A stretch of DNA of 64,000 nt. Origin: a virus. The stretch lies in IMG/VR virus record IMGVR_UViG_3300042324_002009, positions 17,709 to 81,708 of that record, one strand, 5' to 3'. This document shows positions 41,573 to 64,000 of the stretch, in pieces. The position numbers and the translations under genes are program-made. The stretch's first letter is position 1; every line of letters starts with the position of its first letter. The notes below the pieces were generated by a model. It ran no database searches and was not told where the DNA came from. It saw nothing but the letters and a program-made list of their open reading frames with translations.

Positions 41573-41578
41573 CTTACC

Positions 41579-41606
41579 TAAACTCTATTAAGGTAGTTAG
41601 TATAAT
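41579..41606 (+). promoter_or_regulatory. Putative early/middle promoter TAAAC-N17-TATAAT for the glycosyltransferase (leaderless geometry)
   Basis: TAAAC 41579-41583, TATAAT 41601-41606, ATG at 41612. Confidence 0.7.
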
Positions 41607-41611
41607 TTATT

Positions 41612-47600: not shown

Positions 47601-50600
47601 GGTATAGACGGAGTCTCAGGAACAGATGGTAGCTCAGGAACTTCTGGCGAATCAGGTTCAAATGGAACAAGTGGAACTTCAGGTTCAAACGGATCAGATG
47701 GAACAAGCGGTACCTCAGGCTCAGATGGAACTTCAGGTACTTCAGGTATAGATGGAACTAATGGTTCAGATGGTACTTCAGGTACAAGCGGTATTGATGG
47801 AGTCTCTGGAACAGATGGTTCTAGTGGAACTTCTGGCGAATCAGGTTCTAATGGAACAAGCGGTACGTCAGGTTCAAACGGGTCAGATGGAACTTCAGGA
47901 ACTTCCGGTTCAGACGGTACTTCTGGTACATCAGGTTCAGATGGTACAAGTGGTACATCAGGTTCAGATGGTACTTCAGGAACTTCAGGTTCAGATGGTA
48001 CGTCAGGAACAAGTGGAACTTCTGGTTCAGATGGTACTTCTGGTACTTCAGGATCAGACGGTACAAGTGGAACTTCTGGAATTGATGGAACAAATGGTTC
48101 AGACGGTACTTCAGGTACAAGCGGAACTTCAGGTATCGATGGAGTCTCTGGAACTGACGGTAGCTCAGGAACTTCTGGAGAATCAGGTTCAAATGGAACC
48201 TCTGGTACTTCAGGCATAGATGGAACTAATGGTTCAGATGGTACAAGTGGAACTTCAGGTTCAGATGGAACAAGCGGTACTTCAGGTTCAAACGGATCAG
48301 ATGGAACTTCTGGAACTTCTGGTATTGATGGAGTCTCTGGAACAGATGGTTCTAGTGGAACTTCTGGTTCAGAAGGTACAAGCGGTACTTCTGGTATTGA
48401 TGGAACAAACGGATCAGATGGAACAAGCGGCACGTCAGGAATAGATGGAACAAATGGTTCAGATGGTACGTCAGGTACTTCAGGCTCAGATGGTACTTCT
48501 GGAACAGATGGTATAAATGGAACAGATGGTTCTAGTGGAACCTCTGGTAGTTCAGGTCTAAGCGGAGTAGACGGTACTTCTGGTACTTCAGGTTCAGACG
48601 GTACTTCTGGTACTTCAGGTTCAACTGGTACTTCTGGTACTTCAGGTTCAGACGGTACTTCTGGTACTTCAGGTTCAGACGGTACTTCTGGTACTTCAGG
48701 TTCAGACGGTACTTCCGGTACTTCAGGTTCAGACGGAACTTCAGGAACTTCGGGAATAGACGGAACAAGCGGTTCAGATGGAACAAGCGGTACCTCAGGT
48801 ACTTCAGGAATAGACGGAGTCTCTGGAACAGATGGTAGCTCAGGAACTTCAGGAGAATCAGGTTCAAATGGTACTTCAGGTACAAGTGGAACCTCTGGTA
48901 CTTCAGGTTCAGATGGAACAAGCGGTACTTCAGGCACAAGCGGTTCAGACGGTACTTCTGGAACAAGCGGCACCTCTGGTTCAGACGGAACCTCTGGTAC
49001 TTCTGGTTCAGACGGAACCTCTGGTACTTCTGGTTCAACTGGTACTTCAGGTACTTCAGGCTCAACTGGTTCAGATGGAACTTCAGGCACAAGCGGAACT
49101 TCAGGGTCAGACGGAACCTCTGGTACTTCCGGTACTTCCGGTATTGATGGAGTCTCTGGAACAGATGGTAGCTCTGGAACTTCTGGCGAATCAGGTTCAA
49201 ATGGTACTTCTGGAACAAGTGGAACTTCAGGTTCAAACGGTTCAGACGGAACCTCAGGTACTTCAGGTATTGATGGAACAAATGGATCCGATGGAACTTC
49301 CGGTTCAGATGGAACCTCTGGTACTTCCGGTGCAAATGGTATTTCAACTAGTGTATTCTATTATGAAGCTAAAGATAATGCACAATCAGGTAATCCTGGA
49401 GATGGTCATATTCTTTGGAATAATGCAACACAAATTAGTGCAACCCAAATAAACATAAATCATTTAACGGATGCTCCAATAACTGATATTGATATATTTT
49501 TAGCTCTATTACAAGTAGGTCAACAATTAACAATTCAAGATCGAAACAATAGTGCAAATTATCAAGTATGGGTTATTAATGGAGCAACTACCTTAATTAC
49601 TGGAGCCTCCAATTACTGGACTGTTCCAGTTGCACTAGTTAGTTCTGGTGGTACTCCACAGTTTGCAAATAATCATGAAATTTTCTTAGCCATAATTGCT
49701 GCAACTGGTTCTAGTGGCACAAGCGGTACTTCAGGCTCAACTGGTACTTCAGGAACTTCAGGTTCAACTGGTACTTCCGGTACTTCAGGCTCAACTGGGT
49801 CAAATGGAACTAGCGGAACATCAGGTACTTCAGGCTCAGACGGAACAAGCGGTACTTCAGGTACTTCCGGTATTGATGGAGTCTCAGGAACAGATGGTTC
49901 TTCAGGTACAAGCGGAACAACTGGTACTTCCGGTACTTCAGGTTCAGACGGAACCTCTGGTACTTCAGGTTCAAATGGTTCAGTTGGAACTTCCGGTACA
50001 AGCGGAACAACTGGTACTTCCGGTACTTCAGGTTCAGACGGAACAAGCGGTACTTCTGGTTCAACCGGCACAAGCGGAACCTCTGGTACTTCTGGAACAA
50101 GCGGAACTTCTGGTTCAACTGGGTCAGATGGAACATCAGGCACAAGCGGAACTTCTGGAATAGACGGCGTCTCTGGAACAGACGGTAGCTCTGGTACATC
50201 AGGCGAATCTGGCTCAAATGGAACTTCTGGAACAAGCGGTACTTCAGGTTCAACTGGAACAAGCGGAACTTCTGGTACTTCTGGTACATCCGGTTCAACT
50301 GGTACTTCGGGTACAAGCGGAACTTCCGGTTCAACTGGTACTTCGGGTACAAGCGGAACTTCCGGTTCAACTGGAACTTCAGGCACAAGCGGAACAAGTG
50401 GAACTTCAGGCACAAGCGGTACTTCAGGTTCTGATGGTACATCAGGAACAAGCGGAACTTCTGGTATTGATGGAGTCTCTGGAACAAACGGTAGCTCAGG
50501 AACTTCGGGAGAATCAGGCTCAAACGGTACTTCTGGAACATCCGGTTCAACTGGAACTTCGGGAACTTCTGGTTCAACTGGAAGTTCAGGAACATCAGGC

Positions 50601-51986
50601 TCAACTGGTACATCTGGTACTTCCGGTTCAACTGGTACATCTGGAACTTCTGGCTCAACTGGTACATCTGGAACTTCTGGCTCAACTGGTACATCTGGTA
50701 CTAGCGGTACTTCCGGTTCAAGCGGTACTTCTGGAACTTCAGGTTCAACTGGAACTTCGGGAACATCAGGTTCAACTGGAACAAGCGGAACTTCTGGTAG
50801 TTCTGGTACATCGGGTTCAACTGGTACTTCAGGTTCAACTGGAACATCAGGAACTTCTGGTTCAAGTGGATCAGACGGTACTTCTGGTACTAGCGGTACG
50901 TCCGGTATTGATGGAGTCTCAGGAACAAATGGTAGCTCAGGTACATCAGGTTCAGCTGGAACAAGCGGAACATCTGGTACTTCTGGTACCTCTGGTTCTT
51001 CAGGAACTTCTGGTTCAAACGGCTCAAGCGGAACTTCTGGTTCAAATGGCTCAAACGGTTCTTCAGGAACTTCAGGTTCTAATGGATCAAGCGGAACTTC
51101 AGGTTCTAATGGATCAAGCGGAACTTCAGGCTCAAATGGTTCTTCTGGAACTTCAGGTTCTAATGGATCAAGCGGAACTTCTGGTACTTCAGGTTCAACT
51201 GGAACAAGCGGAACTTCTGGTTCAGATGGTTCATCTGGAACATCAGGTATTGATGGAGTCTCTGGAACAAACGGCTCAAGCGGAACGTCGGGTTTAACTG
51301 GTACTTCGGGCTCAGACGGTTCAAGCGGTACTTCTGGTGGAACTGGTACTTCAGGCTCAAACGGTTCAAGTGGTACTTCCGGTACATCTGGTTCAAGCGG
51401 AACTTCGGTTTCAGTATCCGGTACTCAATCTCAATATACGGTATTTGGTGCAGGTGGAACCACTGTAGTTGATTCAACCTTTGGTATATTTGAAGATACT
51501 ACACTAGATGCCCTATTAATTGGAACCCAGGCTGTTGCTGAAATGCCAAATGAAGTAGTATACAGCCGCCATCAAAATATAACGACTGGAGTAAAACAGG
51601 CTCATTCAAATATTTTATACTCTGATCCAATTTCAGCCTTTGGCTCTGCTGGCTTAAAAATTGATATTGTAAATAATAAATCATTTGAGTTTAATACAGT
51701 GGATAGAATATATGGTATTCAAATTTATATGATAGGTAGTGCGGGAGGCTCTAATGAGGTTGATTATCGAATGTATAGCGGAGCTGTTAAAAATATTGCT
51801 GGAACTGTTTCAATTGTTGGAAATGGATTTACTGAAATTACGCTTGCTCAAGATTCAGTACTTTGGGTATCTATCCCAACTTTTACAATAAGTGGAGCAA
51901 TTTTACTTATTAATATTGCAAATAATACATCTGACCAAATCGCAATTGCTGCACGAGTTGAAATAATTAGTGATGGATTGATATAA
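44640..51986 (+). CDS. Gly-X-Y fibre protein 2 (2448 aa)
   Basis: N-terminal domain, 495 triplets (44892-49346), ~120-aa globular insert, 189 triplets (49707-51407), C-terminal domain of about 190 aa. Confidence 0.9.
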   Translation: MSLTPGLQLPYGIQPVNPVPVDAWSGPYTGANETAAIAAANTAILSAIRFQSMEVRLIFGGSSHKYWYRDGVLDTDLVEFASGSGTAGTAGSAGTSGTSGASGSDGTSGTSGIDGTNGSDGTSGTSGIDGTNGSDGTSGTSGIDGTNGSDGTSGTSGIDGTTGSDGTSGTSGIDGTNGSDGTSGTSGSDGTSGTSGIDGVSGTDGSSGTSGESGSNGTSGTSGESGSNGTSGTSGSNGTSGTSGIDGTNGSNGTSGTSGIDGVSGTDGSSGTSGESGSNGSDGTSGTSGSNGTSGTSGSNGTSGTSGSNGSNGSDGTSGTSGIDGVSGTDGSSGTSGESGSNGTSGTSGSDGTSGTSGSNGTSGTSGIDGTNGSDGTSGTSGIDGVSGTDGSSGTSGESGSNGSDGTSGTSGSDGTSGSDGTSGTSGIDGTNGEDGSSGTSGSSGLSGVDGSSGTSGSTGSDGTSGSNGTSGTSGSNGTSGTSGTAGTSGTSGIDGTNGSDGTSGTSGIDGVSGTDGSSGTSGESGSNGTSGTSGIDGTNGSDGTSGTSGIDGTNGSDGTSGTSGTSGIDGVSGTDGSSGTSGESGSNGSDGTSGTSGSDGTSGTSGSDGTSGTSGIDGTNGSDGTSGTSGIDGVSGTDGSSGTSGESGSNGSDGTSGTSGIDGTNGSDGTSGTSGIDGTNGSDGTSGTSGTSGIDGVSGTDGSSGTSGESGSNGSDGTSGTSGSDGTSGSDGTSGTSGIDGTNGSDGTSGTSGIDGVSGTDGSSGTSGESGSNGSDGTSGTSGIDGTNGSDGTSGTSGSDGTSGTSGSNGSDGTSGTSGIDGVSGTDGSSGTSGSEGTSGTSGSDGTSGTSGIDGTNGSDGTSGTSGSDGTSGSDGTSGTSGIDGTSGSDGSSGTSGSSGLSGVDGSSGTSGSIGTSGTSGTSGTSGSDGTSGSNGTSGTSGSDGTSGTSGSDGTSGTSGSDGTSGTSGLDGTNGSDGTSGTSGTSGIDGVSGTDGSSGTSGESGSNGTSGTSGSNGSDGTSGTSGSDGTSGTSGIDGTNGSDGTSGTSGIDGVSGTDGSSGTSGESGSNGTSGTSGSNGSDGTSGTSGSDGTSGTSGSDGTSGTSGSDGTSGTSGSDGTSGTSGTSGSDGTSGTSGSDGTSGTSGIDGTNGSDGTSGTSGTSGIDGVSGTDGSSGTSGESGSNGTSGTSGIDGTNGSDGTSGTSGSDGTSGTSGSNGSDGTSGTSGIDGVSGTDGSSGTSGSEGTSGTSGIDGTNGSDGTSGTSGIDGTNGSDGTSGTSGSDGTSGTDGINGTDGSSGTSGSSGLSGVDGTSGTSGSDGTSGTSGSTGTSGTSGSDGTSGTSGSDGTSGTSGSDGTSGTSGSDGTSGTSGIDGTSGSDGTSGTSGTSGIDGVSGTDGSSGTSGESGSNGTSGTSGTSGTSGSDGTSGTSGTSGSDGTSGTSGTSGSDGTSGTSGSDGTSGTSGSTGTSGTSGSTGSDGTSGTSGTSGSDGTSGTSGTSGIDGVSGTDGSSGTSGESGSNGTSGTSGTSGSNGSDGTSGTSGIDGTNGSDGTSGSDGTSGTSGANGISTSVFYYEAKDNAQSGNPGDGHILWNNATQISATQININHLTDAPITDIDIFLALLQVGQQLTIQDRNNSANYQVWVINGATTLITGASNYWTVPVALVSSGGTPQFANNHEIFLAIIAATGSSGTSGTSGSTGTSGTSGSTGTSGTSGSTGSNGTSGTSGTSGSDGTSGTSGTSGIDGVSGTDGSSGTSGTTGTSGTSGSDGTSGTSGSNGSVGTSGTSGTTGTSGTSGSDGTSGTSGSTGTSGTSGTSGTSGTSGSTGSDGTSGTSGTSGIDGVSGTDGSSGTSGESGSNGTSGTSGTSGSTGTSGTSGTSGTSGSTGTSGTSGTSGSTGTSGTSGTSGSTGTSGTSGTSGTSGTSGTSGSDGTSGTSGTSGIDGVSGTNGSSGTSGESGSNGTSGTSGSTGTSGTSGSTGSSGTSGSTGTSGTSGSTGTSGTSGSTGTSGTSGSTGTSGTSGTSGSSGTSGTSGSTGTSGTSGSTGTSGTSGSSGTSGSTGTSGSTGTSGTSGSSGSDGTSGTSGTSGIDGVSGTNGSSGTSGSAGTSGTSGTSGTSGSSGTSGSNGSSGTSGSNGSNGSSGTSGSNGSSGTSGSNGSSGTSGSNGSSGTSGSNGSSGTSGTSGSTGTSGTSGSDGSSGTSGIDGVSGTNGSSGTSGLTGTSGSDGSSGTSGGTGTSGSNGSSGTSGTSGSSGTSVSVSGTQSQYTVFGAGGTTVVDSTFGIFEDTTLDALLIGTQAVAEMPNEVVYSRHQNITTGVKQAHSNILYSDPISAFGSAGLKIDIVNNKSFEFNTVDRIYGIQIYMIGSAGGSNEVDYRMYSGAVKNIAGTVSIVGNGFTEITLAQDSVLWVSIPTFTISGAILLINIANNTSDQIAIAARVEIISDGLI
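48573..48734 (+). repeat. 6 x 27-nt near-perfect tandem repeat GGTACTTCTGGTACTTCAGGTTCAGAC
   Basis: Directly visible. One unit ends in ACT instead of GAC and one has TCC. Confidence 0.9.
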
Positions 51987-52002
51987 TACTGGCCTATCTT
52001 AA

Positions 52003-52010
52003 ATAAATAA
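52003..52010 (+). promoter_or_regulatory. Late promoter motif ATAAATAA
   Basis: In the intergenic gap, 57 nt upstream of the ATG at 52068. Confidence 0.55.
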
Positions 52011-52067: not shown

Positions 52068-55000
52068 ATGTCATATAAAATAACTTCGCCAGGTGGTGTT
52101 GAACTTAACGATAGTAGTGCAAATCCAAAGCTAGGATTACTAATTCCAACCATTGACGATATTACCAATGCAAGTGGATCAGCTAAAGAAGGTTCTGTAA
52201 TCTATAATAAATTAGATAATAATATTTATAGGTTTACTGGTGCAGCCTGGGAGTCAGCTGCTGGTAGTTCAGGCACAAGCGGTACATCTGGTTCAAGCGG
52301 AACTGCTGGTACTTCAGGTTCTAGTGCAATTGATGGTATTTCAAATGAGTCGTTTAATTCTTCATTAGTTACTGCATTTACTAATACCACTAATGATAGC
52401 GAAGTTATTACAATTGTAAATCAATTAAGTACTAAAATTGTTATTGGTGGATATTTTACAACTTTTAAAGGTGCTACCCGAAAGAGTTTAGTTAGATTAA
52501 ATATTGACGGTTCTGAAGATATTGGATTTTATTCAAATTTAGGTACAGGTTTTAGTGCTGGAACTTATGTTGAAACAGTTAGTGTTCAAGCGGATGAAAA
52601 ACTTATAATAGGTGGAGACTTTACCACATTTAATACTAATACCCGAAACCGCTTAATCCGATTAAATTCAAATGGTACAGAAGATACTGCATTCTATACA
52701 AACTTAGGTTTGGGATTTAATGGAACAGTTATTCAATCCGCTGTTCAAGCCGATGGAAAGATTTTAGTAGGTGGAGTATTTACCACATTTGATGGAAATA
52801 CCCGAAACCGCTTAATCCGATTAAATTCAGATGGTACAGAAGATACTGCATTCTATACAAACTTAGGCTCAGGTATTACTTCTCAAGTTAATGCAATTAC
52901 AATTCAATCTGATAATTCTATATTAATCGGTACAGCAGCTGGCCTAATTAAATTAAACGCAAATGGAACATTAGACTCAGCATTTAATTCAAACTTAGGT
53001 TCAAATGCAGTTGATATACTTGCAATTGCGTGTCAAGCCGACGGATTAATATTAGTCGGCGGCGGATTTACTACATTTAATGGAACTACTAAAAATGGTC
53101 TAATCCGATTAAATTCAAATGGTACGGAAGATACTGCTTTTTATACTAAAATAGGAACAGGTTTTACTGGAGCATTTACCCCACTTGGATTCACAATAAA
53201 TGTTCAATCAGACGGTCGTATACTTGTAGGTGGAGGTTTTGATTCATTTAATGGAGGTACTCGTCATAAGTTAGTTAGATTATTTGCAGATGGTACAGAA
53301 GATATTAGATTCTATGCCGCATTAGGAAGCGCCGTAGGCCCAGGTTCTCCAAGTGGATCTCAAATTAATACAATTTTACTTAAGAATAATTTAATATTGG
53401 TAGGCGGAGCTTTTACTACATTAAACGGAGTTACTCTAAACAATTTATTTTCTTTATATAATAATTCAAACTTATCATCAGGGACAGTTGGTTCAAGCGG
53501 ATCTAATGGAACTAACGGTTCTTCAGGATCAAGCGGAACCTCTGGAACTTCTGGTGAATCTGGTTCTAATGGAAGCTCTGGAACTTCAGGTTCCAACGGC
53601 TCAAATGGTTCTTCGGGTACTTCAGGTTCCAACGGATCACATGGTAGCTCAGGTACTTCCGGTACTTCCGGATCAAATGGTAGCTCAGGTACTTCAGGTT
53701 CTAACGGATCTAATGGTTCAAGCGGAACTTCAGGTTCTAATGGTTCTTCAGGAACAAGTGGAACTTCAGGTTCTAACGGATCTAATGGATCAAGCGGAAC
53801 TTCAGGTTCAAGTGGTTCTAATGGTAGCTCAGGAACATCAGGTTCAAGTGGTTCTAATGGATCAAGTGGAACTTCCGGCTCAAATGGATCAAGTGGAACT
53901 TCAGGTTCTAATGGATCAAATGGAAGCTCAGGAACTTCTGGTTCTAACGGTTCTTCTGGTACGTCAGGTACATCAGGTTCTAATGGATCTTCTGGAACTT
54001 CAGGTTCTAATGGATCAAATGGAAGCTCTGGAACTTCTGGTTCTAATGGTTCAAGTGGAAGCTCTGGAACTTCTGGTTCTAATGGTTCAAGTGGAACTTC
54101 TGGTAGTTCTGGTTCAACTGGAACAAGCGGAACATCAGGTTCAAACGGTTCTTCAGGTACATCAGGTTCTAACGGTAGCTCAGGAACTTCTGGTTCTAAT
54201 GGATCTAACGGTTCTTCTGGAACATCAGGTACTTCAGGTTCTAATGGCTCTTCTGGTACTTCAGGTACTTCTGGTTCAACCGGCTCAAACGGTAGCTCAG
54301 GAACTTCAGGTTCAAATGGTTCTAATGGAAGCTCAGGAACTTCTGGAACTTCCGGCTCAAATGGTTCAAGCGGTACATCTGGTTCTAATGGAAGCTCTGG
54401 AACATCAGGTTCTAATGGCTCAAACGGTAGCTCAGGAACATCAGGTTCTAATGGCTCAAACGGTAGCTCAGGAACAAGCGGTACATCTGGTTCAAACGGT
54501 TTAAATGGAAGCTCAGGTACATCCGGATCAAATGGTTCTTCAGGAACTTCAGGTTCAAACGGTAGCTCAGGTACTTCAGGTACATCAGGTTCAAATGGTT
54601 CAAGCGGAACAAGCGGTTCAAATGGTAGCTCAGGAACATCTGGGACTAGTGGTTCTAATGGATCTTCTGGAACATCTGGTTCAAACGGTTCTTCCGGAAC
54701 TTCAGGTTCTTCTGGAACATCTGGTTCTAATGGATCAAATGGAAGCTCTGGTACATCAGGCGAATCTGGCTCAAATGGAACTTCTGGAACAAGCGGTACT
54801 TCAGGTTCAACTGGAACAAGCGGAACTTCTGGTACTTCAGGAACTTCAGGTACAAGCGGTTCAAATGGTTCTTCCGGAACTTCCGGTTCTAATGGAAGCT
54901 CTGGTACATCTGGTTCTAATGGCTCAAATGGAAGCTCTGGTACTTCAGGTTCTAATGGATCTTCTGGTACTTCAGGTTCTAATGGATCAAATGGAAGCTC

Positions 55001-58000
55001 TGGAACTTCAGGTTCAAATGGTTCTTCAGGAACTAGTGGTACTTCAGGTTCGAATGGCTCAAATGGTAGCTCAGGAACTTCTGGTTCTAATGGGTCTTCT
55101 GGTACAAGTGGTACTTCTGGAACTTCTGGTTCAAATGGTTCTTCAGGAACTTCAGGTTCTAATGGCAGTTCAGGTACTTCAGGTTCAAACGGTTCTTCCG
55201 GTACTAGCGGTACTTCTGGTTCAAATGGTTCTTCTGGAACAAGCGGTTCAAATGGTTCAAACGGATCATCCGGTACTTCAGGAACTTCAGGTTCAAACGG
55301 ATCAAATGGTAGCTCAGGTACTTCAGGTTCAAACGGTTCTAGTGGAACATCTGGTACTTCTGGGTCAGATGGAACTTCTGGAACTAGTGGTACTTCAGGT
55401 TCAAACGGCTCAAATGGTAGCTCTGGAACAAGCGGAACTTCTGGTACATCAGGTTCAAATGGTAGCTCTGGAACGAGTGGTTCAAATGGATCAAACGGTA
55501 GCTCAGGTACATCAGGTTCAAATGGTAGCTCTGGAACTTCAGGTTCTAACGGGTCAAATGGATCATCTGGAACATCTGGTTCTAATGGATCAAATGGAAG
55601 CTCTGGTACTTCAGGAACAAGCGGTTCAAATGGATCATCTGGTACTTCAGGAACTTCAGGTTCAAATGGAAGCTCTGGAACATCTGGTTCTAATGGTAGT
55701 TCAGGAACATCAGGTACATCAGGTACGTCTGGAACATCAGGTTCAAATGGCTCTTCTGGAACTTCCGGTTCTAATGGCTCAAATGGTTCTTCTGGAACTT
55801 CCGGCACAAGCGGATCAACCGGTTCTTCAGGAACAAGTGGAACATCAGGATCAAATGGATCAAGCGGTACTGCTGGTTCTTCTGGAACAAGCGGATCAAA
55901 CGGTTCTTCCGGTACTTCAGGTTCAAATGGTTCAAGTGGAACTTCCGGTACTTCAGGTTCAAACGGATCACATGGTTCTTCTGGAACTTCAGGTTCAACT
56001 GGTTCTTCTGGAACAAGTGGAACCTCTGGAACTTCAGGTTCAACTGGTTCTTCTGGAACAAGTGGAACCTCTGGTACTTCTGGTTCAACTGGAACTTCAG
56101 GAACATCAGGTTCAAACGGCAGCTCAGGAACTTCTGGAACATCAGGTTCAAACGGCAGCTCAGGAACAAGCGGTTCTTCAGGAACTTCGGGTACTTCAGG
56201 TTCTAATGGTTCTTCTGGAACATCCGGTACTTCCGGTACATCTGGTTCAAACGGATCAAGTGGTACTTCTGGTTCTAATGGATCAAATGGAAGCTCAGGA
56301 ACTAGTGGCACATCCGGTTCAAATGGCTCTAATGGAAGCTCTGGTACTTCAGGTTCTAATGGATCAAATGGTAGCTCTGGTACATCAGGTACTTCTGGAA
56401 CATCCGGCTCAAATGGTTCTAACGGAAGCTCAGGAACTTCTGGTTCAAGTGGTACCTCAGGTACTTCCGGTTCTAACGGCTCTTCTGGTACTTCAGGCTC
56501 AAACGGTTCTTCTGGAACTTCAGGGTCAAATGGATCAAACGGTTCTTCTGGTACAAGTGGAACTTCAGGTTCAAATGGAACAAGCGGAACTAGCGGTTCT
56601 AATGGTTCAAGCGGAACTTCAGGTTCTAATGGATCAAGCGGAACCTCAGGTACTTCAGGAACATCCGGTTCGAATGGTTCAAATGGATCAAGCGGTACTT
56701 CAGGTTCTAATGGATCAAATGGAAGCTCGGGAACTTCTGGTTCTAATGGAAGCTCAGGTACGTCAGGTTCTAATGGTTCAAGTGGAACATCTGGTACTTC
56801 AGGTTCAAACGGCTCAAACGGTAGCTCAGGAACTTCAGGTTCTAATGGTTCAAGTGGAACCTCAGGTACTTCAGGTTCTAACGGAACCTCAGGAACATCA
56901 GGCTCAAATGGATCTAATGGTAGTTCAGGTACATCAGGTTCAAATGGATCTAATGGAAGCTCGGGAACAAGTGGTACATCAGGAACATCCGGTACTTCAG
57001 GTTCTTCTGGAACATCAGGCACTTCCGGTTCAAACGGTTCTTCTGGAACTTCTGGTTCTAATGGATCAAACGGTAGCTCAGGTACTTCAGGTTCTAATGG
57101 CTCTTCTGGTACTTCTGGAACATCAGGTTCAACTGGTACATCAGGAACATCAGGTTCAAGTGGAACTTCTGGAACTCGTGGTACATCAGGTACGTCAGGG
57201 ACAGCCGGTTCTTCTGGAACTTCTGGCACAAGCGGATCTACTGGAACCTCAGGAACAAGTGGAATAAGCGGAGTAGATGGATCTAATGGTACATCAGGAA
57301 CCTCCGGCACCTCAGGTTCGAATGGATCTTCTGGAACAAGCGGAACATCTGGCTCTAATGGTTCTTCAGGATCAAGTGGAACCTCAGGAACATCTGGTTC
57401 AACTGGTACTTCTGGAACAAGCGGCTCAACTGGAACTTCTGGAACGTCAGGTTCTTCTGGAACGTCAGGTTCTTCTGGAACTTCTGGAACAAGTGGTACA
57501 TCAGGTTCAAACGGTTCAAGTGGAACTTCAGGTTCTAACGGCTCAAACGGTAGCTCAGGAACTTCTGGAACAAGAGGTACGTCTGGAACAAGCGGTTCTA
57601 ATGGCTCAAGCGGTACTTCTGGAACTTCAGGCTCAACTGGTACTAGTGGTACTTCAGGTTCAAATGGTTCTTCCGGTTCAAGCGGTACCTCAGGTACTTC
57701 CGGTTCTAATGGCTCTTCTGGTACTTCAGGTTCAAACGGATCAAATGGTTCTTCTGGAACTTCAGGTTCAAATGGATCAAATGGTAGTTCCGGTACATCT
57801 GGTACTTCTGGTTCTAACGGATCAAATGGTACTTCAGGCTCAAATGGTTCAAACGGTTCAAGTGGAACTTCAGGTTCTAATGGATCTTCTGGAACATCTG
57901 GTACCTCTGGTTCTAATGGTTCTTCAGGAACCTCAGGTTCAACTGGCTCAAATGGTTCAAGTGGAACATCAGGTTCAAACGGTAGCTCAGGAACTTCAGG

Positions 58001-61000
58001 TTCTAATGGATCAAATGGTTCAAGCGGAACTTCAGGTTCAAATGGTTCTTCTGGAACTTCAGGCTCAAATGGTTCTTCTGGAACTTCAGGTTCTAATGGA
58101 TCAAACGGTTCATCTGGAACTTCAGGTTCTAATGGATCAAGTGGTACATCTGGTTCAAACGGTTCTTCTGGAACTTCAGGTTCTAATGGTTCTTCTGGAA
58201 CAAGCGGAACCTCCGGTTCTAATGGTTCTTCTGGAACAAGCGGAACCTCCGGTTCTAATGGTAGTTCAGGTACTTCAGGTTCTAATGGATCTAATGGTTC
58301 TTCTGGTACTTCAGGTTCTAATGGATCAAACGGTTCATCTGGAACTTCTGGTTCTAATGGCTCAAGTGGTACATCTGGTTCAAACGGTTCTTCTGGAACT
58401 TCAGGTTCTAATGGATCAAATGGAAGCTCTGGTACTTCAGGTTCTAATGGATCAAATGGAAGCTCTGGAACTTCAGGTTCTAATGGATCAAATGGAAGCT
58501 CTGGAACTAGTGGAACCTCAGGGTCTAATGGTTCAAATGGAAGCTCTGGAACTTCAGGCTCAACTGGTACTTCAGGTACATCAGGTTCTAACGGTACTTC
58601 AGGAACTTCAGGTTCAAATGGTTCAAGCGGTACATCAGGTTTAAATGGCTCAAATGGTTCAAGTGGAACATCAGGCTCAAATGGTTCTTCTGGAACTTCA
58701 GGTTCTAATGGATCTTCTGGAACATCTGGTACCTCTGGTTCTAATGGTTCTTCTGGAACAAGCGGAACCTCCGGCTCAAATGGATCAAATGGTTCTTCTG
58801 GTACTTCTGGAACCTCAGGAACAAGCGGAACAACTGGTTCAACTGGAACAAGCGGAACTTCAGGTTCAAGTGGATCAATTGGAACAAGTGGAACTAGTGG
58901 AACTTCAGGTACATCCGGTTCAAACGGTTCTTCTGGAACTTCAGGTTCTAATGGATCAAATGGAAGCTCAGGAACTTCGGGTTCTAATGGAAGCTCAGGT
59001 ACTTCAGGTTCAAATGGATCAAACGGTTCTTCAGGAACTTCAGGTTCAAACGGCTCTAATGGAAGCTCAGGTACTTCAGGTTCAAATGGATCAAACGGTT
59101 CTTCAGGAACTTCAGGTTCAAACGGCTCTAATGGTAGCTCAGGTACGTCAGGCTCAAATGGATCTAATGGTAGCTCGGGAACTTCAGGTTCTTCTGGAAC
59201 AAGAGGTACGTCAGGTACTTCCGGTACTAGTGGAACCTCAGGTTCTAATGGTAGCTCAGGAACTAGTGGAACCTCAGGTTCAAGCGGCTCAAATGGTTCT
59301 TCTGGAACTTCTGGAACATCTGGTTCTAATGGTAGTTCAGGTACTTCTGGTACATCTGGCTCTAATGGATCAAATGGTTCTTCTGGTACTTCAGGTTCTA
59401 ATGGATCAAACGGAAGCTCAGGTACATCAGGTTCTAATGGTTCTTCTGGAACAAGCGGTAGCTTAGGAACTTCTGGAACATCAGGTTCAAGCGGCTCAAA
59501 TGGTTCTTCTGGAACTTCTGGAACATCTGGTTCTAATGGTTCTTCTGGTACTTCTGGTTCAAATGGATCAAACGGAAGCTCAGGAACATCAGGTTCTAAT
59601 GGATCGAGTGGAAGCTCAGGAACGTCAGGTTCTAATGGTTCTTCTGGAACAAGCGGTAGCTTAGGAACTTCTGGAACATCAGGTTCAAACGGCTCAAATG
59701 GTTCTTCTGGTACTTCTGGTTCAAATGGATCAAATGGTTCTTCTGGTACTTCTGGTTCAAATGGATCAAACGGAAGCTCAGGAACATCAGGTTCTAATGG
59801 ATCGAGTGGAAGCTCAGGAACGTCAGGTTCTAATGGATCAAGTGGAACTTCCGGTTCAAGTGGAACTTCTGGTTCTAATGGATCAAACGGAAGCTCAGGA
59901 ACTTCAGGTTCAAATGGTTCTTCAGGAACTTCAGGTTCAAATGGCTCAAATGGTTCAAGTGGAACTTCAGGTACTTCAGGTTCAAATGGATCAAACGGTT
60001 CAAGCGGAACATCAGGTTCAAATGGATCTAATGGATCAAGCGGAACATCCGGTACATCTGGTTCAAACGGATCAAATGGAAGCTCAGGAACTTCAGGTTC
60101 AAACGGCAGCTCTGGTACGTCAGGTACATCTGGTTCAAACGGATCAAATGGTTCTTCAGGTACTTCAGGCTCTAATGGATCTTCTGGAACTTCTGGTTCT
60201 AATGGCTCAAGCGGTACATCCGGCTCTAATGGTTCAAATGGTAGTTCAGGAACTTCAGGTTCTTCTGGAACAAGAGGTACTTCTGGTACTTCTGGTACTA
60301 GTGGAACTTCAGGAACATCAGGCTCAAACGGATCAAATGGTTCTTCTGGAACATCTGGAACTTCAGGTTCAAACGGCTCAAATGGAAGCTCTGGAACTAG
60401 TGGAACCTCAGGGTCTAATGGTTCATCTGGAACTTCTGGTTCTAATGGTTCAAGCGGTTCATCTGGTACTTCTGGAACAAGAGGTACTTCTGGAACTTCT
60501 GGTACTTCAGGTACTTCCGGTTCTAATGGTTCTTCTGGAACTTCTGGTACTTCCGGTTCTAATGGTTCTTCTGGAACAAGTGGTACGTCTGGTTCAAATG
60601 GATCAAATGGAAGCTCTGGTACCTCTGGTTCTAATGGATCAAACGGAAGCTCAGGAACTTCAGGTTCTAATGGCTCAAGTGGAACATCTGGTTCAAACGG
60701 ATCAAATGGAAGCTCTGGAACTTCTGGTACATCTGGTTCAAATGGCTCAAGCGGAAGCTCAGGAACTTCAGGCTCTAATGGAAGCTCAGGAACGTCGGGT
60801 TCAAACGGATCAAACGGTTCTTCAGGAACTTCTGGTTCAAGCGGTACATCCGGTTCTTCTGGCACAAGAGGTACTTCAGGTACTAGTGGTACCTCAGGTA
60901 CATCAGGTTCAACTGGTACTTCTGGAACAAGCGGTACTTCTGGTTCTAATGGATCAAATGGAAGCTCAGGAACTTCAGGTTCAAACGGTTCAAACGGGTC

Positions 61001-64000
61001 AAGCGGAACTTCAGGTTCTTCCGGCTTAACTGGTAGCTCAGGAACTAGTGGAACTTCCGGTTCTAATGGTTCTAGTGGTACATCAGGTTCAAACGGTTCT
61101 AATGGTTCTTCAGGAACGTCAGGGTCAAACGGTTCTAACGGTTCTTCAGGAACGTCAGGGTCAAACGGATCTAATGGTTCTTCTGGAACTTCAGGTTCTA
61201 ACGGTAGCTCAGGAACATCTGGTTCAAATGGATCAAACGGTAGCTCAGGAACATCTGGTTCAAATGGCTCTAATGGTAGCTCAGGAACTTCAGGATCTTC
61301 AGGAACAAGAGGTACTTCAGGTACTTCTGGTACTAGTGGAACTTCAGGTTCAAACGGTTCATCTGGAACTTCAGGAACAAGCGGTTCAAACGGTTCAAGT
61401 GGAACTTCAGGTTCTAATGGATCAAATGGAAGCTCAGGAACTTCAGGTTCAAACGGTTCTTCTGGCACATCAGGTTCTAATGGTTCTTCTGGAACTTCAG
61501 GAACCAGAGGTACTTCTGGTACATCTGGAACAAGCGGAACTTCCGGTTCAAACGGATCAAACGGAAGTTCTGGTACATCAGGTTCTAATGGCTCAAATGG
61601 ATCAAGCGGTACTTCTGGTTCTAATGGCTCAAATGGTAGTTCAGGAACTTCAGGTTCTAATGGATCAAATGGAAGCTCTGGTACCTCAGGGTCTAATGGT
61701 TCTAATGGTTCTTCTGGAACTAGTGGAACTTCAGGTTCTAATGGATCTTCTGGAACATCTGGTACTTCAGGTTCTAATGGCTCAAACGGTAGCTCTGGTA
61801 CTTCCGGCTCAAATGGTTCTTCAGGAACATCTGGTTCAAATGGATCAAACGGTTCAAGTGGAACGTCAGGTTCTAATGGTTCTTCTGGAACTTCAGGAAC
61901 AAGAGGTTCTTCTGGAACTTCGGGAACAAGCGGAACATCAGGTTCAAATGGTTCTAACGGCTCAAGTGGTACCTCAGGTTCTAATGGATCAAATGGTTCT
62001 TCTGGAACTTCTGGTTCTAATGGATCAAATGGTTCTTCTGGAACTTCAGGTTCTAACGGTAGCTCAGGTACTTCCGGTTCTAACGGCTCAAGCGGAACCT
62101 CAGGTTCAAACGGCTCAAATGGTTCAAGTGGAACTTCAGGTTCAAACGGCTCAAATGGTAGCTCAGGAACATCTGGTTCAAACGGAAGCTCAGGAACTTC
62201 AGGTACTTCAGGTTCAAATGGTTCTAATGGCTCAAGTGGAACATCAGGTTCAAATGGTTCTTCAGGAACATCAGGTTCAAATGGATCAAACGGTTCAAGC
62301 GGTACTTCTGGTTCAAATGGTTCAAACGGTTCTAGTGGAACTTCAGGTACCTCAGGCTCTAACGGCTCAAATGGTAGCTCAGGAACATCCGGCTCAAATG
62401 GTTCTTCAGGAACTTCTGGAACAAGAGGTACTTCAGGTACTTCTGGTTCAAACGGTAGCTCAGGAACATCCGGCTCAAATGGTTCAAACGGTTCAAGCGG
62501 TACGTCTGGCTCAAACGGTTCTTCGGGAACTTCTGGTTCAAATGGTAGCTCAGGAACCTCTGGTTCAAACGGTTCAAGCGGTAGCTCAGGAACATCCGGC
62601 TCAAATGGTTCAAACGGTTCAAGCGGTACTTCTGGCTCAAATGGAAGCTCAGGTACTTCAGGTTCTAATGGTTCTAACGGAAGTTCTGGTACATCAGGTT
62701 CAAATGGCTCAAATGGATCTTCAGGTACATCAGGTTCAAATGGTTCTAACGGAAGTTCTGGTACATCAGGTTCAAATGGCTCTAACGGAAGTTCTGGTAC
62801 ATCAGGTTCTAATGGTTCTTCAGGAACTTCCGGCTCAAACGGCTCAAACGGCTCTAGTGGAACTTCTGGTTCAAATGGCAGTTCCGGTACTTCAGGAACA
62901 CGTGGTACTTCTGGTACATCCGGTTCTAATGGAAGCTCAGGAACGTCCGGCACATCAGGCTCAACTGGAGCAAGTGGAGCAGCAATTAGTGACGGTTGGG
63001 ATTGGGGTACTCCATTAGCCAGTACTAAAATTTATAGTAATAATGGTAATTTAGATGCTGCAACTTCTCTATTAAACATAGCGGAAGTTTCATTAACTTC
63101 AACCAATTATAGTGGAGTGTATCCATCAATTGGTACTGGCACACTAATTAAGACAAATGGTGGAATTGGTGGTCAAATTGTATATTATAGAACAACTGGT
63201 GTAGGTTTTGATACTGGAATATATTGGGAATTTCCAGTAACTTATGTTTCAGGTACACCTTGGACGCCATCTGCTGGCACTGATATTATTGTTGACATAT
63301 CTGCTGCAGGTGTATCAGGCTCGTCTGGTACTTCAGGAACACGTGGTACTTCAGGTACTTCAGGCTCAAATGGTTCTTCTGGAACCTCAGGTTCTAATGG
63401 ATCAAATGGAAGCTCGGGTACATCAGGTTCTAATGGTTCTTCTGGAACTTCAGGTTCTAACGGATCAAACGGTAGCTCTGGTTCTTCTGGAACACGAGGT
63501 ACGTCAGGAACCTCTGGTACATCTGGTTCAAACGGTTCTTCTGGAACATCAGGTACTTCAGGTTCTAATGGCAGCTCAGGTACATCAGGAACTTCAGGAT
63601 CAGCTGGTACTAGTGGTACAAGTTTTATATGGAAAGGTATTTGGGTTGGTGGTACTCTTTATGCGATTAATGATGTAATTTCATTTAACGGAAGTTCTTA
63701 TATTTCTATAGTATCAAGTAATATAGGAAATAACCCGTCTACTAGTCCAGCGCAATGGACGCTAATGGCATCTGCTGGGTCAAACGGCTCATCAGGTACA
63801 AGTGGTACATCAGGCTCAAATGGTAGCTCTGGAACTTCTGGTTCAAATGGCTCAAATGGAAGTTCTGGAACTTCAGGAACAAGAGGTACTTCTGGAACTT
63901 CTGGTTCAAATGGATCATCTGGTACTTCTGGTACATCCGGTTCAAACGGTTCTTCTGGAACTTCTGGTTCTAATGGATCAAATGGCTCATCAGGTACAAG
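52068..64000 (+). CDS. Giant Gly-X-Y fibre protein 3 (>3970 aa, 3'-truncated; absent from ORF track) with delta-60-repeat beta-propeller and CBM5/12-like module
   Basis: ATG at 52068 (MSYKITSPGGVELND...), and the same frame reads TSGSNGSNGSSGT at the window end. Contains delta-60/DUF5122-like repeats (VQADGKILVGGVFTTFDGNTRNRLIRLNSDGTEDTAF, ~52380-53460), a Gly-X-Y block at 53481-62984, an insert at 62985-63308, and WKGIWVGGTLYAINDVISFNGSSY...QWTLMA (~63630-63770). Confidence 0.9.
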   Translation, partial: MSYKITSPGGVELNDSSANPKLGLLIPTIDDITNASGSAKEGSVIYNKLDNNIYRFTGAAWESAAGSSGTSGTSGSSGTAGTSGSSAIDGISNESFNSSLVTAFTNTTNDSEVITIVNQLSTKIVIGGYFTTFKGATRKSLVRLNIDGSEDIGFYSNLGTGFSAGTYVETVSVQADEKLIIGGDFTTFNTNTRNRLIRLNSNGTEDTAFYTNLGLGFNGTVIQSAVQADGKILVGGVFTTFDGNTRNRLIRLNSDGTEDTAFYTNLGSGITSQVNAITIQSDNSILIGTAAGLIKLNANGTLDSAFNSNLGSNAVDILAIACQADGLILVGGGFTTFNGTTKNGLIRLNSNGTEDTAFYTKIGTGFTGAFTPLGFTINVQSDGRILVGGGFDSFNGGTRHKLVRLFADGTEDIRFYAALGSAVGPGSPSGSQINTILLKNNLILVGGAFTTLNGVTLNNLFSLYNNSNLSSGTVGSSGSNGTNGSSGSSGTSGTSGESGSNGSSGTSGSNGSNGSSGTSGSNGSHGSSGTSGTSGSNGSSGTSGSNGSNGSSGTSGSNGSSGTSGTSGSNGSNGSSGTSGSSGSNGSSGTSGSSGSNGSSGTSGSNGSSGTSGSNGSNGSSGTSGSNGSSGTSGTSGSNGSSGTSGSNGSNGSSGTSGSNGSSGSSGTSGSNGSSGTSGSSGSTGTSGTSGSNGSSGTSGSNGSSGTSGSNGSNGSSGTSGTSGSNGSSGTSGTSGSTGSNGSSGTSGSNGSNGSSGTSGTSGSNGSSGTSGSNGSSGTSGSNGSNGSSGTSGSNGSNGSSGTSGTSGSNGLNGSSGTSGSNGSSGTSGSNGSSGTSGTSGSNGSSGTSGSNGSSGTSGTSGSNGSSGTSGSNGSSGTSGSSGTSGSNGSNGSSGTSGESGSNGTSGTSGTSGSTGTSGTSGTSGTSGTSGSNGSSGTSGSNGSSGTSGSNGSNGSSGTSGSNGSSGTSGSNGSNGSSGTSGSNGSSGTSGTSGSNGSNGSSGTSGSNGSSGTSGTSGTSGSNGSSGTSGSNGSSGTSGSNGSSGTSGTSGSNGSSGTSGSNGSNGSSGTSGTSGSNGSNGSSGTSGSNGSSGTSGTSGSDGTSGTSGTSGSNGSNGSSGTSGTSGTSGSNGSSGTSGSNGSNGSSGTSGSNGSSGTSGSNGSNGSSGTSGSNGSNGSSGTSGTSGSNGSSGTSGTSGSNGSSGTSGSNGSSGTSGTSGTSGTSGSNGSSGTSGSNGSNGSSGTSGTSGSTGSSGTSGTSGSNGSSGTAGSSGTSGSNGSSGTSGSNGSSGTSGTSGSNGSHGSSGTSGSTGSSGTSGTSGTSGSTGSSGTSGTSGTSGSTGTSGTSGSNGSSGTSGTSGSNGSSGTSGSSGTSGTSGSNGSSGTSGTSGTSGSNGSSGTSGSNGSNGSSGTSGTSGSNGSNGSSGTSGSNGSNGSSGTSGTSGTSGSNGSNGSSGTSGSSGTSGTSGSNGSSGTSGSNGSSGTSGSNGSNGSSGTSGTSGSNGTSGTSGSNGSSGTSGSNGSSGTSGTSGTSGSNGSNGSSGTSGSNGSNGSSGTSGSNGSSGTSGSNGSSGTSGTSGSNGSNGSSGTSGSNGSSGTSGTSGSNGTSGTSGSNGSNGSSGTSGSNGSNGSSGTSGTSGTSGTSGSSGTSGTSGSNGSSGTSGSNGSNGSSGTSGSNGSSGTSGTSGSTGTSGTSGSSGTSGTRGTSGTSGTAGSSGTSGTSGSTGTSGTSGISGVDGSNGTSGTSGTSGSNGSSGTSGTSGSNGSSGSSGTSGTSGSTGTSGTSGSTGTSGTSGSSGTSGSSGTSGTSGTSGSNGSSGTSGSNGSNGSSGTSGTRGTSGTSGSNGSSGTSGTSGSTGTSGTSGSNGSSGSSGTSGTSGSNGSSGTSGSNGSNGSSGTSGSNGSNGSSGTSGTSGSNGSNGTSGSNGSNGSSGTSGSNGSSGTSGTSGSNGSSGTSGSTGSNGSSGTSGSNGSSGTSGSNGSNGSSGTSGSNGSSGTSGSNGSSGTSGSNGSNGSSGTSGSNGSSGTSGSNGSSGTSGSNGSSGTSGTSGSNGSSGTSGTSGSNGSSGTSGSNGSNGSSGTSGSNGSNGSSGTSGSNGSSGTSGSNGSSGTSGSNGSNGSSGTSGSNGSNGSSGTSGSNGSNGSSGTSGTSGSNGSNGSSGTSGSTGTSGTSGSNGTSGTSGSNGSSGTSGLNGSNGSSGTSGSNGSSGTSGSNGSSGTSGTSGSNGSSGTSGTSGSNGSNGSSGTSGTSGTSGTTGSTGTSGTSGSSGSIGTSGTSGTSGTSGSNGSSGTSGSNGSNGSSGTSGSNGSSGTSGSNGSNGSSGTSGSNGSNGSSGTSGSNGSNGSSGTSGSNGSNGSSGTSGSNGSNGSSGTSGSSGTRGTSGTSGTSGTSGSNGSSGTSGTSGSSGSNGSSGTSGTSGSNGSSGTSGTSGSNGSNGSSGTSGSNGSNGSSGTSGSNGSSGTSGSLGTSGTSGSSGSNGSSGTSGTSGSNGSSGTSGSNGSNGSSGTSGSNGSSGSSGTSGSNGSSGTSGSLGTSGTSGSNGSNGSSGTSGSNGSNGSSGTSGSNGSNGSSGTSGSNGSSGSSGTSGSNGSSGTSGSSGTSGSNGSNGSSGTSGSNGSSGTSGSNGSNGSSGTSGTSGSNGSNGSSGTSGSNGSNGSSGTSGTSGSNGSNGSSGTSGSNGSSGTSGTSGSNGSNGSSGTSGSNGSSGTSGSNGSSGTSGSNGSNGSSGTSGSSGTRGTSGTSGTSGTSGTSGSNGSNGSSGTSGTSGSNGSNGSSGTSGTSGSNGSSGTSGSNGSSGSSGTSGTRGTSGTSGTSGTSGSNGSSGTSGTSGSNGSSGTSGTSGSNGSNGSSGTSGSNGSNGSSGTSGSNGSSGTSGSNGSNGSSGTSGTSGSNGSSGSSGTSGSNGSSGTSGSNGSNGSSGTSGSSGTSGSSGTRGTSGTSGTSGTSGSTGTSGTSGTSGSNGSNGSSGTSGSNGSNGSSGTSGSSGLTGSSGTSGTSGSNGSSGTSGSNGSNGSSGTSGSNGSNGSSGTSGSNGSNGSSGTSGSNGSSGTSGSNGSNGSSGTSGSNGSNGSSGTSGSSGTRGTSGTSGTSGTSGSNGSSGTSGTSGSNGSSGTSGSNGSNGSSGTSGSNGSSGTSGSNGSSGTSGTRGTSGTSGTSGTSGSNGSNGSSGTSGSNGSNGSSGTSGSNGSNGSSGTSGSNGSNGSSGTSGSNGSNGSSGTSGTSGSNGSSGTSGTSGSNGSNGSSGTSGSNGSSGTSGSNGSNGSSGTSGSNGSSGTSGTRGSSGTSGTSGTSGSNGSNGSSGTSGSNGSNGSSGTSGSNGSNGSSGTSGSNGSSGTSGSNGSSGTSGSNGSNGSSGTSGSNGSNGSSGTSGSNGSSGTSGTSGSNGSNGSSGTSGSNGSSGTSGSNGSNGSSGTSGSNGSNGSSGTSGTSGSNGSNGSSGTSGSNGSSGTSGTRGTSGTSGSNGSSGTSGSNGSNGSSGTSGSNGSSGTSGSNGSSGTSGSNGSSGSSGTSGSNGSNGSSGTSGSNGSSGTSGSNGSNGSSGTSGSNGSNGSSGTSGSNGSNGSSGTSGSNGSNGSSGTSGSNGSSGTSGSNGSNGSSGTSGSNGSSGTSGTRGTSGTSGSNGSSGTSGTSGSTGASGAAISDGWDWGTPLASTKIYSNNGNLDAATSLLNIAEVSLTSTNYSGVYPSIGTGTLIKTNGGIGGQIVYYRTTGVGFDTGIYWEFPVTYVSGTPWTPSAGTDIIVDISAAGVSGSSGTSGTRGTSGTSGSNGSSGTSGSNGSNGSSGTSGSNGSSGTSGSNGSNGSSGSSGTRGTSGTSGTSGSNGSSGTSGTSGSNGSSGTSGTSGSAGTSGTSFIWKGIWVGGTLYAINDVISFNGSSYISIVSSNIGNNPSTSPAQWTLMASAGSNGSSGTSGTSGSNGSSGTSGSNGSNGSSGTSGTRGTSGTSGSNGSSGTSGTSGSNGSSGTSGSNGSNGSSGT
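53481..62984 (+). repeat. 9,504-nt low-complexity Gly-X-Y coding array (GSN/GSS/GTS), 1,056 triplets
   Basis: 9-nt periodicity GGN-(TCN/ACN/AGY)-(AAY/TCN/AGY). Length is exactly divisible by 9, and the antisense shadow ORF shows Pro at every third residue. Confidence 0.92.

Follow-up and report, generated by a model that had tools for sequence, protein, structure and literature searches.

A proline-free Gly-X-Y giant gene at the end of a freshwater jumbo-phage contig, a candidate for a collagen-type virion fibre

Reading frame and domain layout

The window analysed here comprises 64,000 nt of viral DNA (IMG/VR record IMGVR_UViG_3300042324_002009, positions 17,709 to 81,708) and ends in a giant open reading frame (ORF) dominated by Gly-X-Y triplets. 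The frame lies on the plus strand (52068..63998), contains 3,977 codons without a stop and runs off the contig. As the window forms the terminal 64 kb of one viral contig (81,708 bp) and both end together, the gene is truncated by the assembly and not only by the window; the ORF is not continued at the contig start. The original prediction, made from the letters alone, held that the real gene is this plus-strand ORF from 52068 and that it has no stop in the window. Both points stand: the frame is open through its last codon, it carries an in-frame DUF5122/delta-60 propeller, and an ortholog on another contig shares its start, with 419 of the first 471 residues identical (89%). The first 471 codons give a dS of 0.41 and a dN/dS of 0.135, indicating purifying selection on the head of the protein. 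On the opposite strand, a stop-free ORF (53360-62953, 3,197 aa) rich in Pro, Glu, Val and Leu is a mirror of the Gly codons, and gene finders are likely to mis-call this ORF as a gene. The giant ORF is laid out as follows.

52068..52262, plus strand: N-terminal head of 65 residues, start and sequence the same in the ortholog
52263..52325, plus strand: short Gly-X-Y stalk of 7 triplets, kept in orthologs
52326..53480, plus strand: delta-60 repeat (DUF5122) beta-propeller (PF17164, E 4.3e-59, 196.9 bits, 6 stretches)
53481..62984, plus strand: shaft of 1,056 unbroken Gly-(Ser/Thr)-(Ser/Asn) triplets, the longest in-register run (aa 472-3639, 3,168 residues)
62985..63308, plus strand: all-beta 'bead' of 108 residues (AlphaFold2 model, pLDDT 92.1, 7 strands)
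63309..63623, plus strand: Gly-X-Y run of 35 triplets
63624..63776, plus strand: CBM5/12-like insert of 51 residues (PF02839, E 7.6e-5, 23.1 bits, a weak match below the cut-off of 26.2)
63777..64000, plus strand: Gly-X-Y run of at least 25 triplets, cut by the contig end

The 65-residue head has no Pfam family match and would be the end attached to the virion. The propeller also scores 127.7 bits with TIGR02608 (cut-off 76.5), which places it in the delta-60 family. This family is frequent in giant bacterial surface proteins and, among the matches listed, also occurs near the C-terminus of phage-fibre-like proteins (50-54% identical). Comparison of the N-terminal region with proteins of 2,187-6,960 aa gave 865 matches; among the 120 listed, none has a Gly-X-Y run of at least 8. 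The bead has no clear solved relative in fold searches (Foldseek best E 0.033; VIA best Z 6.8, in the noise range), and its sequence has 6 matches among 1.84 billion representatives. When aa 3400-3977 served as query, 4 of 1,835 candidates matched at E ≤ 0.001, none with the same architecture. At E ≤ 1, Pfam found no C1q/TNF-like domain on the inserts and C-terminal domains of the giant ORF (whose C-terminus is cut) or of the third fibre gene of the closest relative (G001). The bead and the CBM5/12-like insert may decorate the shaft as binding modules.

Composition and constraint of the shaft

The 3,168 residues of the shaft comprise 1,299 Ser, 1,056 Gly, 445 Thr and 337 Asn, with no Pro, no Lys and 15 charged residues (11 Arg, 2 Glu and 2 Asp; 0.5%). 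These counts reproduce exactly what had been predicted, namely 3,168 Gly-X-Y residues with Pro about absent and charge almost nil. The other Gly-X-Y runs of the ORF have 7, 35 and at least 25 triplets. Three triplets, GTS (410), GSN (334) and GSS (264), make up 1,008 of the 1,056 and follow a grammar of GSN(1-2)-GSS-GTS(1-2) units, the commonest words being NNST (79 times) and NST (72 times). Most of the Thr residues (426 of 445) are in X, and Y is held by Ser and Asn. All but one of the 337 Asn are followed by Gly-Ser/Thr, so that 336 are at once an N-X-S/T sequon and a deamidation-prone Asn-Gly. The Arg residues are placed with similar regularity: all 11 stand in Y, 10 of them in the context S-G-T-R-G-T-S-G, and all lie within the C-terminal two thirds.

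The Gly positions are strictly kept. Rare residues occupy 31 of the 2,112 X/Y positions and none of the 1,056 Gly positions (Fisher p 6.7e-6); at the X/Y rate of rare residues, a run of ∼68 triplets would be expected, against the 1,056 observed. Synonymous sites are scrambled, GTS alone being written by 38 different 9-mers. Both families of Ser codons are used (1,078 TCN and 221 AGY), and the choice of Gly, Thr and Asn codons resembles that in the other genes of the window. The collagen family model PF01391 gives 172.9 bits (cut-off 27.2) on a 333-residue sample of the shaft (nt 55002-56000). Of the published stabilisers of collagen, the shaft has neither imino acids (0) nor Lys-Gly-Asp/Glu pairs (0); with no Lys at all, KGE/KGD clamps cannot form.

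A conserved class of giant genes in relatives

Complete, stop-terminated Gly-X-Y giants with 0-3 Pro occur in every relative that could be extended, and on an independent contig (L101).

G001, the closest relative: ORFs of 2,432, 3,192 and 2,654 aa
G002: ORF of 3,011 aa with 869 unbroken triplets
G003: ORF of 3,622 aa with runs of 317 and 639 triplets
G005: ORFs of 2,514 and 2,810 aa
L101: ORF of 3,558 aa

G003 is a complete 270,962-bp genome with terminal repeats and shares the genes neighbouring the giant ORF in the window. Directly after its Pro-free 3,622-aa gene it has an 870-aa collagen-like gene with 88 Pro (joined L033+L086, 24009-26621), so both collagen chemistries are present in one phage. 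The Gly-X-Y arrays evolve fast: between the array of the window and those of the third fibre gene of G001, 69 of 8,133 31-mers are in common.

Neighbouring genes and candidates for trimerisation and glycosylation

At least three collagen-like fibre genes (665, 2,448 and >3,977 aa) stand in tandem, the giant ORF being the third; they are preceded by genes for a neck-like protein, an amidoligase-like protein, a poly-threonine protein and a 317-aa enzyme; the closest relative has four such fibre genes.

34807..36870, plus strand: neck/head-closure-like protein opening the block (PF11649 T4_neck-protein, E 3.6e-4; phrog_679 head closure Hc2, E 9e-7; both weak)
38279..41572, plus strand: protein of 1,097 aa with many poly-threonine tracts
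41612..42565, plus strand: GT-A fold glycosyltransferase of 317 aa (phrog_4417; model pLDDT 93.4, Foldseek best E 8e-8)
42636..44633, plus strand: first collagen-like fibre gene, 665 aa, 41 + 39 triplets (phrog_819 'tail protein', phrog_38766 'virion structural protein')
44640..51986, plus strand: second collagen-like fibre gene, complete, 2,448 aa, 495 + 189 triplets, no Pro, Asp-rich

Both PHROG matches of the 665-aa gene extend past its repeats. Between the neck-like gene and the poly-threonine protein lies an Amidoligase_2 protein (36879-38231; PF12224, E 2.7e-7).

The fourth fibre gene of G001, whose tail is orthologous to that of the window ORF, ends in a Peptidase_S74 domain (PF13884, E 2e-16, above the cut-off). 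By eye, the ending of the 2,810-aa fibre of G005 is closely similar to it. A domain of this family most likely also follows past the contig end in the window ORF, to go by the orthologous tail. Peptidase_S74 domains act as intramolecular chaperones: they bring about the trimerisation of phage spikes and fibres and afterwards cleave themselves off; the presence of one on the orthologous tail thus points to C-terminal trimerisation, probably with self-cleavage. According to passages of a 2025 survey of collagens, folding of these proteins is nucleated C-terminally and proceeds by zipping towards the N-terminus (PMC11923368), so that such a shaft would call for a trimeriser at its C-terminus. The need is underlined by the tendency of repetitive chains lacking a registering domain to form staggered gels, as stated in part of another paper (PMC13138384).

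Two kinds of sugar-transferring enzyme come into question. Enzymes of the TibC/Aah family (TIGR04414) are found in all four relatives (263-276 bits, cut-off 200), on the same strand and 2-6 kb after the fibre genes; that of G001 matches solved TibC (4RAP) at E 7.6e-52. In G001 the operon (L084 5764-12697, minus strand of the locus) encodes a 936-aa protein combining GT4 with an FkbM methyltransferase, two small methyltransferases and a 924-aa fusion of a methyltransferase with TibC, a gene content that suggests methylated sugars on the fibres.

The second kind is the 317-aa enzyme of the window itself, which the original prediction had linked to the fibre. Its GT-A fold is borne out: the best Foldseek matches are the retaining GT-A enzymes UGGT, WbbM, XXYLT1, glycogenin and LgtC, and H105-D106-x-D108 is invariant, although Pfam, NCBIfam and PDB gave no sequence match. 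Leads to DUF7164 and HPAT (10% of members) were not used as evidence. The coupling to the fibre did not hold. The enzyme adjoins an upstream poly-threonine protein in 56 of 64 viral loci (37 of the 41 with full flanks), against 26 of 64 (13 of 41) with Gly-X-Y genes after it; these 26 comprise 25 of the 29 loci L020-L048 and 1 of the 35 loci L049-L083. The glycosyltransferase and the poly-threonine protein (38279-42565) look like a separate, mucin-like virion-glycosylation pair, and the TibC-family enzyme, encoded downstream in 4/4 relatives, appears the better candidate for a modifier of the fibre.

Interpretation as a collagen-type fibre

Our preferred reading, to which we give a joint probability of roughly 55%, is that the giant ORF truly belongs to the late structural genes of a jumbo myovirus (genome ∼270 kb), uncultured and from fresh water, and encodes a homotrimeric, probably sugar-coated, collagen-type virion fibre of up to ∼0.9 µm. 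A homotrimeric fibre of this type is the most economical explanation because it accounts together for the invariant Gly period, the flanking globular beads, the S74-type end and the fibre-gene neighbourhood; in this respect the original prediction of a fibre-type protein is supported. Collagen rises 0.286 nm per residue. The length of 0.9 µm is plain arithmetic and is valid only if the block is a straight triple helix.

Such a fibre would be built as beads on a string: head, stalk, propeller, shaft, bead, 35 triplets, chitin-binding-like insert and further triplets. The C-terminal chaperone domain would gather three chains and set their register, after which the shaft would zip towards the N-terminus as a collagen-type triple helix. 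With imino acids and Lys-Asp/Glu clamps absent, stability would have to come from the hydration of Ser, Thr and Asn, from a cold habitat and, most plausibly, from dense O-glycosylation, probably by the TibC-type module encoded downstream. Cleavage would remove the chaperone domain after assembly, leaving a thin, flexible virion appendage no longer than ∼0.9 µm. Its propeller and carbohydrate-binding beads may catch glycans of the host surface and so enlarge the capture radius of the phage; the appendage would serve as a long capture line, sited on head, neck or tail. It is tempting, on more tentative grounds, to see here a third kind of collagen, namely a micrometre-long helix dispensing with imino acids and salt bridges, O-glycosylated by TibC-type enzymes (with heptose or another sugar), nucleated by S74 domains and using its arrays as recombination joints for swapping heads and tails.

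Several observations weigh against the collagen-type fibre. Neither published stabiliser is present in the shaft (0 Pro, 0 Lys), and chains rich in Gly and Ser typically serve as flexible linkers. We infer, rather than observe directly, the triple helix, the trimer, the sugars and the presence in the virion; structure prediction with three copies of aa 3580-3800 scored 0.09 (mark 0.32), which counts neither for nor against a trimer. On the contig of the window, which stops inside the gene, TIGR04414 has no match and Pfam detects no glycosyltransferase, so that for both the TibC-type enzyme and the S74 end the argument is by extrapolation from relatives; the glycosyltransferase gene that does lie nearby tracks the poly-threonine protein and not the fibres. 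PF01391 is found in none of five distant relatives (PTm5, pT24, MA9V-1, MaF61 and LR756500), whose known head fibres thus offer no homologous precedent; the head fibres of PTm1/PTm5 were set aside as a precedent that is morphological only. Finally, the two complete orthologs of the head (G001, 3,192 aa; L101, 3,558 aa) depart from the window ORF in their tail and in an insert of 144 residues placed after 156-259 triplets, so the head-tail combination of the window and its run of 1,056 triplets are unique to one assembly. Three more contigs with the same head break within the first array.

Alternative explanations

The strongest competitor, though we consider it rather unlikely, takes the shaft for a disordered, probably glycosylated, mucin-like tether or brush that acts as an entropic spacer or as a hydrated coat carrying the beads. 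By the scaling law for random coils, the same block would then extend over only tens of nanometres. A chain of Gly, Ser, Thr and Asn, free of Pro and with 15 charges in 3,168 residues, fits this well, as does the absence of both stabilising mechanisms described in passages of the 2025 survey (PMC11923368). A mucin-like poly-threonine protein and a GT-A enzyme are encoded in the same gene block, and the strict period could stem in part from duplication in multiples of 9 nt, tandem-repeat analysis (TRF) giving periods of 27, 36, 45 and 63. However, a linker needs no Gly at every third residue, and here 1,056 of 1,056 Gly are kept while X and Y vary and synonymous sites are scrambled. The same constancy of Gly is seen in every relative, and the orthologous tail ends in the S74 domain typical of trimeric fibres. 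Asn-Gly, moreover, deamidates fast in flexible chains, and all but one of the Asn in the shaft precede Gly.

A somewhat less probable explanation accepts the gene class as real and takes this particular ORF for an assembly chimera, in which the array of a propeller-headed gene was joined to the array of the next gene with its S74-type tail, the unique domains in between being passed over; there would then be two genes, and the true run would be shorter. The comparison of the window with G001 by blastn invites this suspicion. Collinearity of the two begins at the end of the second fibre gene, takes in the propeller and reaches ∼680 nt into the first array; it resumes at the last 300 nt of the array and continues through the bead, but with the fourth fibre gene of G001 instead of the third. 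The bead is identical at 101 of 108 residues to that of the fourth gene and at 54 of 108 to that of the third, and the DNA of the tail matches the fourth-gene tail at 86.5% over the first 452 nt and at 80.4% over a longer match of 761 nt. Between the two collinear parts there is only diffuse repeat similarity (∼70%), and a k-mer map of the array against the G001 arrays gave no clean junction. To this are added the different architecture of both complete orthologs of the head, the three assemblies that break in the first array, the ending of the window contig within an array and the fragmentation, described below, of Logan contigs across the array.

Reads from lake water bear on the array itself. 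Among public runs, 24 contain 54-85% of its sampled 31-mers, although these runs may be one campaign and may include the source sample. Error-free identical pieces from inside the array were found in all four public lake-water runs searched (2020, 2023 and 2024). For these four runs the Logan data consist of short k-mer contigs that are fragmented across the array and have many short-sided joints (sides of 20-25 nt), which were disregarded; the data therefore support the local sequence only and not the long-range length or order. Locally, the array is not an assembly product. At long range, a single misjoin of arrays of the size found in G001 would give at most ∼428 triplets (259 + 169), not 1,056. 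Exact repeats within the array reach 104 nt at most, and every 127-mer is unique. In relatives, complete ORFs contain 869 and 639 triplets without a break, and fibre genes are known to shuffle by recombining through repeats. Given the limit of ∼428 triplets and the divergence of the strains (dS 0.41), a real rearrangement is favoured, and the window ORF would be a natural recombinant between a third-gene head and a fourth-gene tail. If this mosaic is real, the Gly-X-Y arrays are recombination joints between paralogous fibre genes.

The alternative raised in the original prediction, a compact polyglycine-II/PPII bundle as in snow-flea antifreeze protein and the gp38 adhesin, or another beta-solenoid, would suit a Gly at every third residue and small polar side chains but is very improbable, since such bundles need regular turns joining short helices and the block runs over 3,168 residues without interruption, periodic breaks, or Gly-Gly or Pro turns.

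Relation to known systems

Collagen-like phage fibres and very long prokaryotic Gly-X-Y proteins are already known. The nearest phage counterparts of the giant fibre are the EPclA-D tail fibres of E. coli O157:H7 prophages, which likewise are phage-encoded and have Gly-X-Y regions between globular end domains; for EPclA, a C-terminal trimerisation domain, a trimeric triple helix and a dumbbell shape by electron microscopy are described in parts of the original report (PMC3368898). The collagen domain of EPclA is short, and its Tm of 42 °C is ascribed to proline in X and ∼22% charged residues, according to the passages concerned of the 2025 survey (PMC11923368). The shaft here, in contrast, has 1,056 triplets, no Pro and 0.5% charge. 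No Pfam match to the end domains of EPclA, PfN (PF08400) and PfC (PF06820), was found on the N-terminal, insert or tail pieces.

The exosporium glycoproteins BclA and BclA3 of Bacillus and Clostridioides resemble the giant fibre as Thr/Ser-rich collagen-like filaments on a particle surface, as presented in sections of a 2022 review of prokaryotic collagens (PMC8968730). A dedicated glycosyltransferase is encoded near BclA proteins (excerpts of PMC8968730 and PMC7157674), and SgtA glycosylates collagen-like BclA3 (likewise in an excerpt of PMC7157674). The particle is here a phage and not a spore, BclA repeats span tens to hundreds of residues, and the enzyme family is TibC-type plus GT4, as seen in the relatives. 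BclA repeats also contain proline (GPT). Trimeric S74 fibres and spikes, such as endosialidase and the L-shaped fibre of T5, share the PF13884 end found in the orthologous tail of the closest relative; those known to us have beta-helical or coiled shafts, not kilobase-long Gly-X-Y arrays.

As for the putative modification, the heptosyltransferase systems TibC-TibA and Aah-AIDA-I (PDB 4RAP; portions of PMC4358343) offer a parallel, since a TibC relative stands beside a giant Ser-rich repeat protein in 4/4 relatives. The likeness lies in the logic of cytoplasmic hyperglycosylation of a repetitive adhesin. Unlike in TibC-TibA, a Gly-X-Y fibre takes the place of the beta-helical autotransporter as presumed substrate, the enzyme carries a fused methyltransferase domain, and it is known here from the genes of relatives alone. 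The cuticle collagen of the vent worm Riftia, also very long, is said to be stabilised by galactosylated threonine (Mann et al. 1996), thus having glycosylated Thr instead of hydroxyproline at stabilising positions. It is an animal collagen and still has proline; in the shaft, unlike in Riftia, Thr is mostly in X (426/445), with Ser and Asn in Y. Ac-(Gly-Pro-Thr)10 adopts a random coil so long as its Thr is not galactosylated, as recounted in a passage of the 2025 survey (PMC11923368). The peptide provides a precedent for sugar-dependent helices, and BclA/BclA3 one for glycosylated collagen-like filaments.

New features would be a chemistry lacking both Pro and charge pairs, the combination with S74 ends and modules of TibC type, and the scale in a phage. 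In the parts concerned, the 2025 survey argues that Lys-Gly-Asp/Glu clamps are universal, viruses included, and mentions prokaryotic Gly-X-Y proteins of up to 2,000 triplets (PMC11923368), and the 2022 review puts phage collagens at ∼18 residues (PMC8968730). The word 'collagen' does not occur in a 2026 review of jumbo phages (PMC13282480) or in a paper on freshwater 'moraphages' (PMC12619734). A literature search found no description of such phage fibres, supplementary files, which may list such genes, being outside its scope.

In collagen biophysics, imino acids, charge pairs or both are regarded as necessary for a stable triple helix. The giant fibre and its relatives are natural sequences with neither; if they form a collagen helix, their shafts do so in the absence of the stabilisers that textbooks require. 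Two questions thereby become testable, namely whether hydration or glycosylation alone is enough for a triple helix, and how register is kept over a thousand identical-looking triplets. A fibre several times the length of the virion, if true, would also alter models of host encounter for large freshwater phages.

Phage identity and late transcription

The viral origin of the DNA can be narrowed to a phage, as shown by phage genes, a tail sheath, tail-fibre PHROGs and phage relatives. The contig encodes gp32, ribonucleotide reductase, GroEL/GroES, sigma-like and neck-like proteins together with a 1,008-aa tail sheath, and comes from a jumbo phage with a contractile tail; the genomes of complete relatives measure ∼250-270 kb. 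Its baseplate-region proteins share 24-30% identity with counterparts in phages of Tenacibaculum, Chryseobacterium and Flavobacterium, in PAU, in Lak phages and in a metagenomic phage of 462 kb, and the lineage resembles phages of Bacteroidota. The phage has GroEL and GroES genes of its own (11548-13128 of the window and L092 16346-16678), and a SET-domain protein lies among the replication genes (L092 3720-4214).

A promoter-like element precedes the giant ORF.

52002..52010, plus strand: late-promoter-like site AATAAATAA, 58 nt upstream of the start codon of the giant ORF

The motif, which we take to resemble the T4 late promoter TATAAATA, is not enriched by count: RATAAATAA has 8 matches in the window where 5.0 would be expected, and as many as 8 arise in 15 of 100 shuffles. 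The signal lies in its placement alone. Six of the eight copies of (A/G)ATAAATAA, all on the plus strand (15266, 18636, 34782, 38250, 42597 and 52002), sit 17-58 nt upstream of the starts of plus-strand structural ORFs, and the copy upstream of the giant ORF is kept upstream of its ortholog in the closest relative. A small protein with sigma-70 region 2 is encoded at 14798-15217; together with the placed motifs, it suggests a T4-like system of late transcription.

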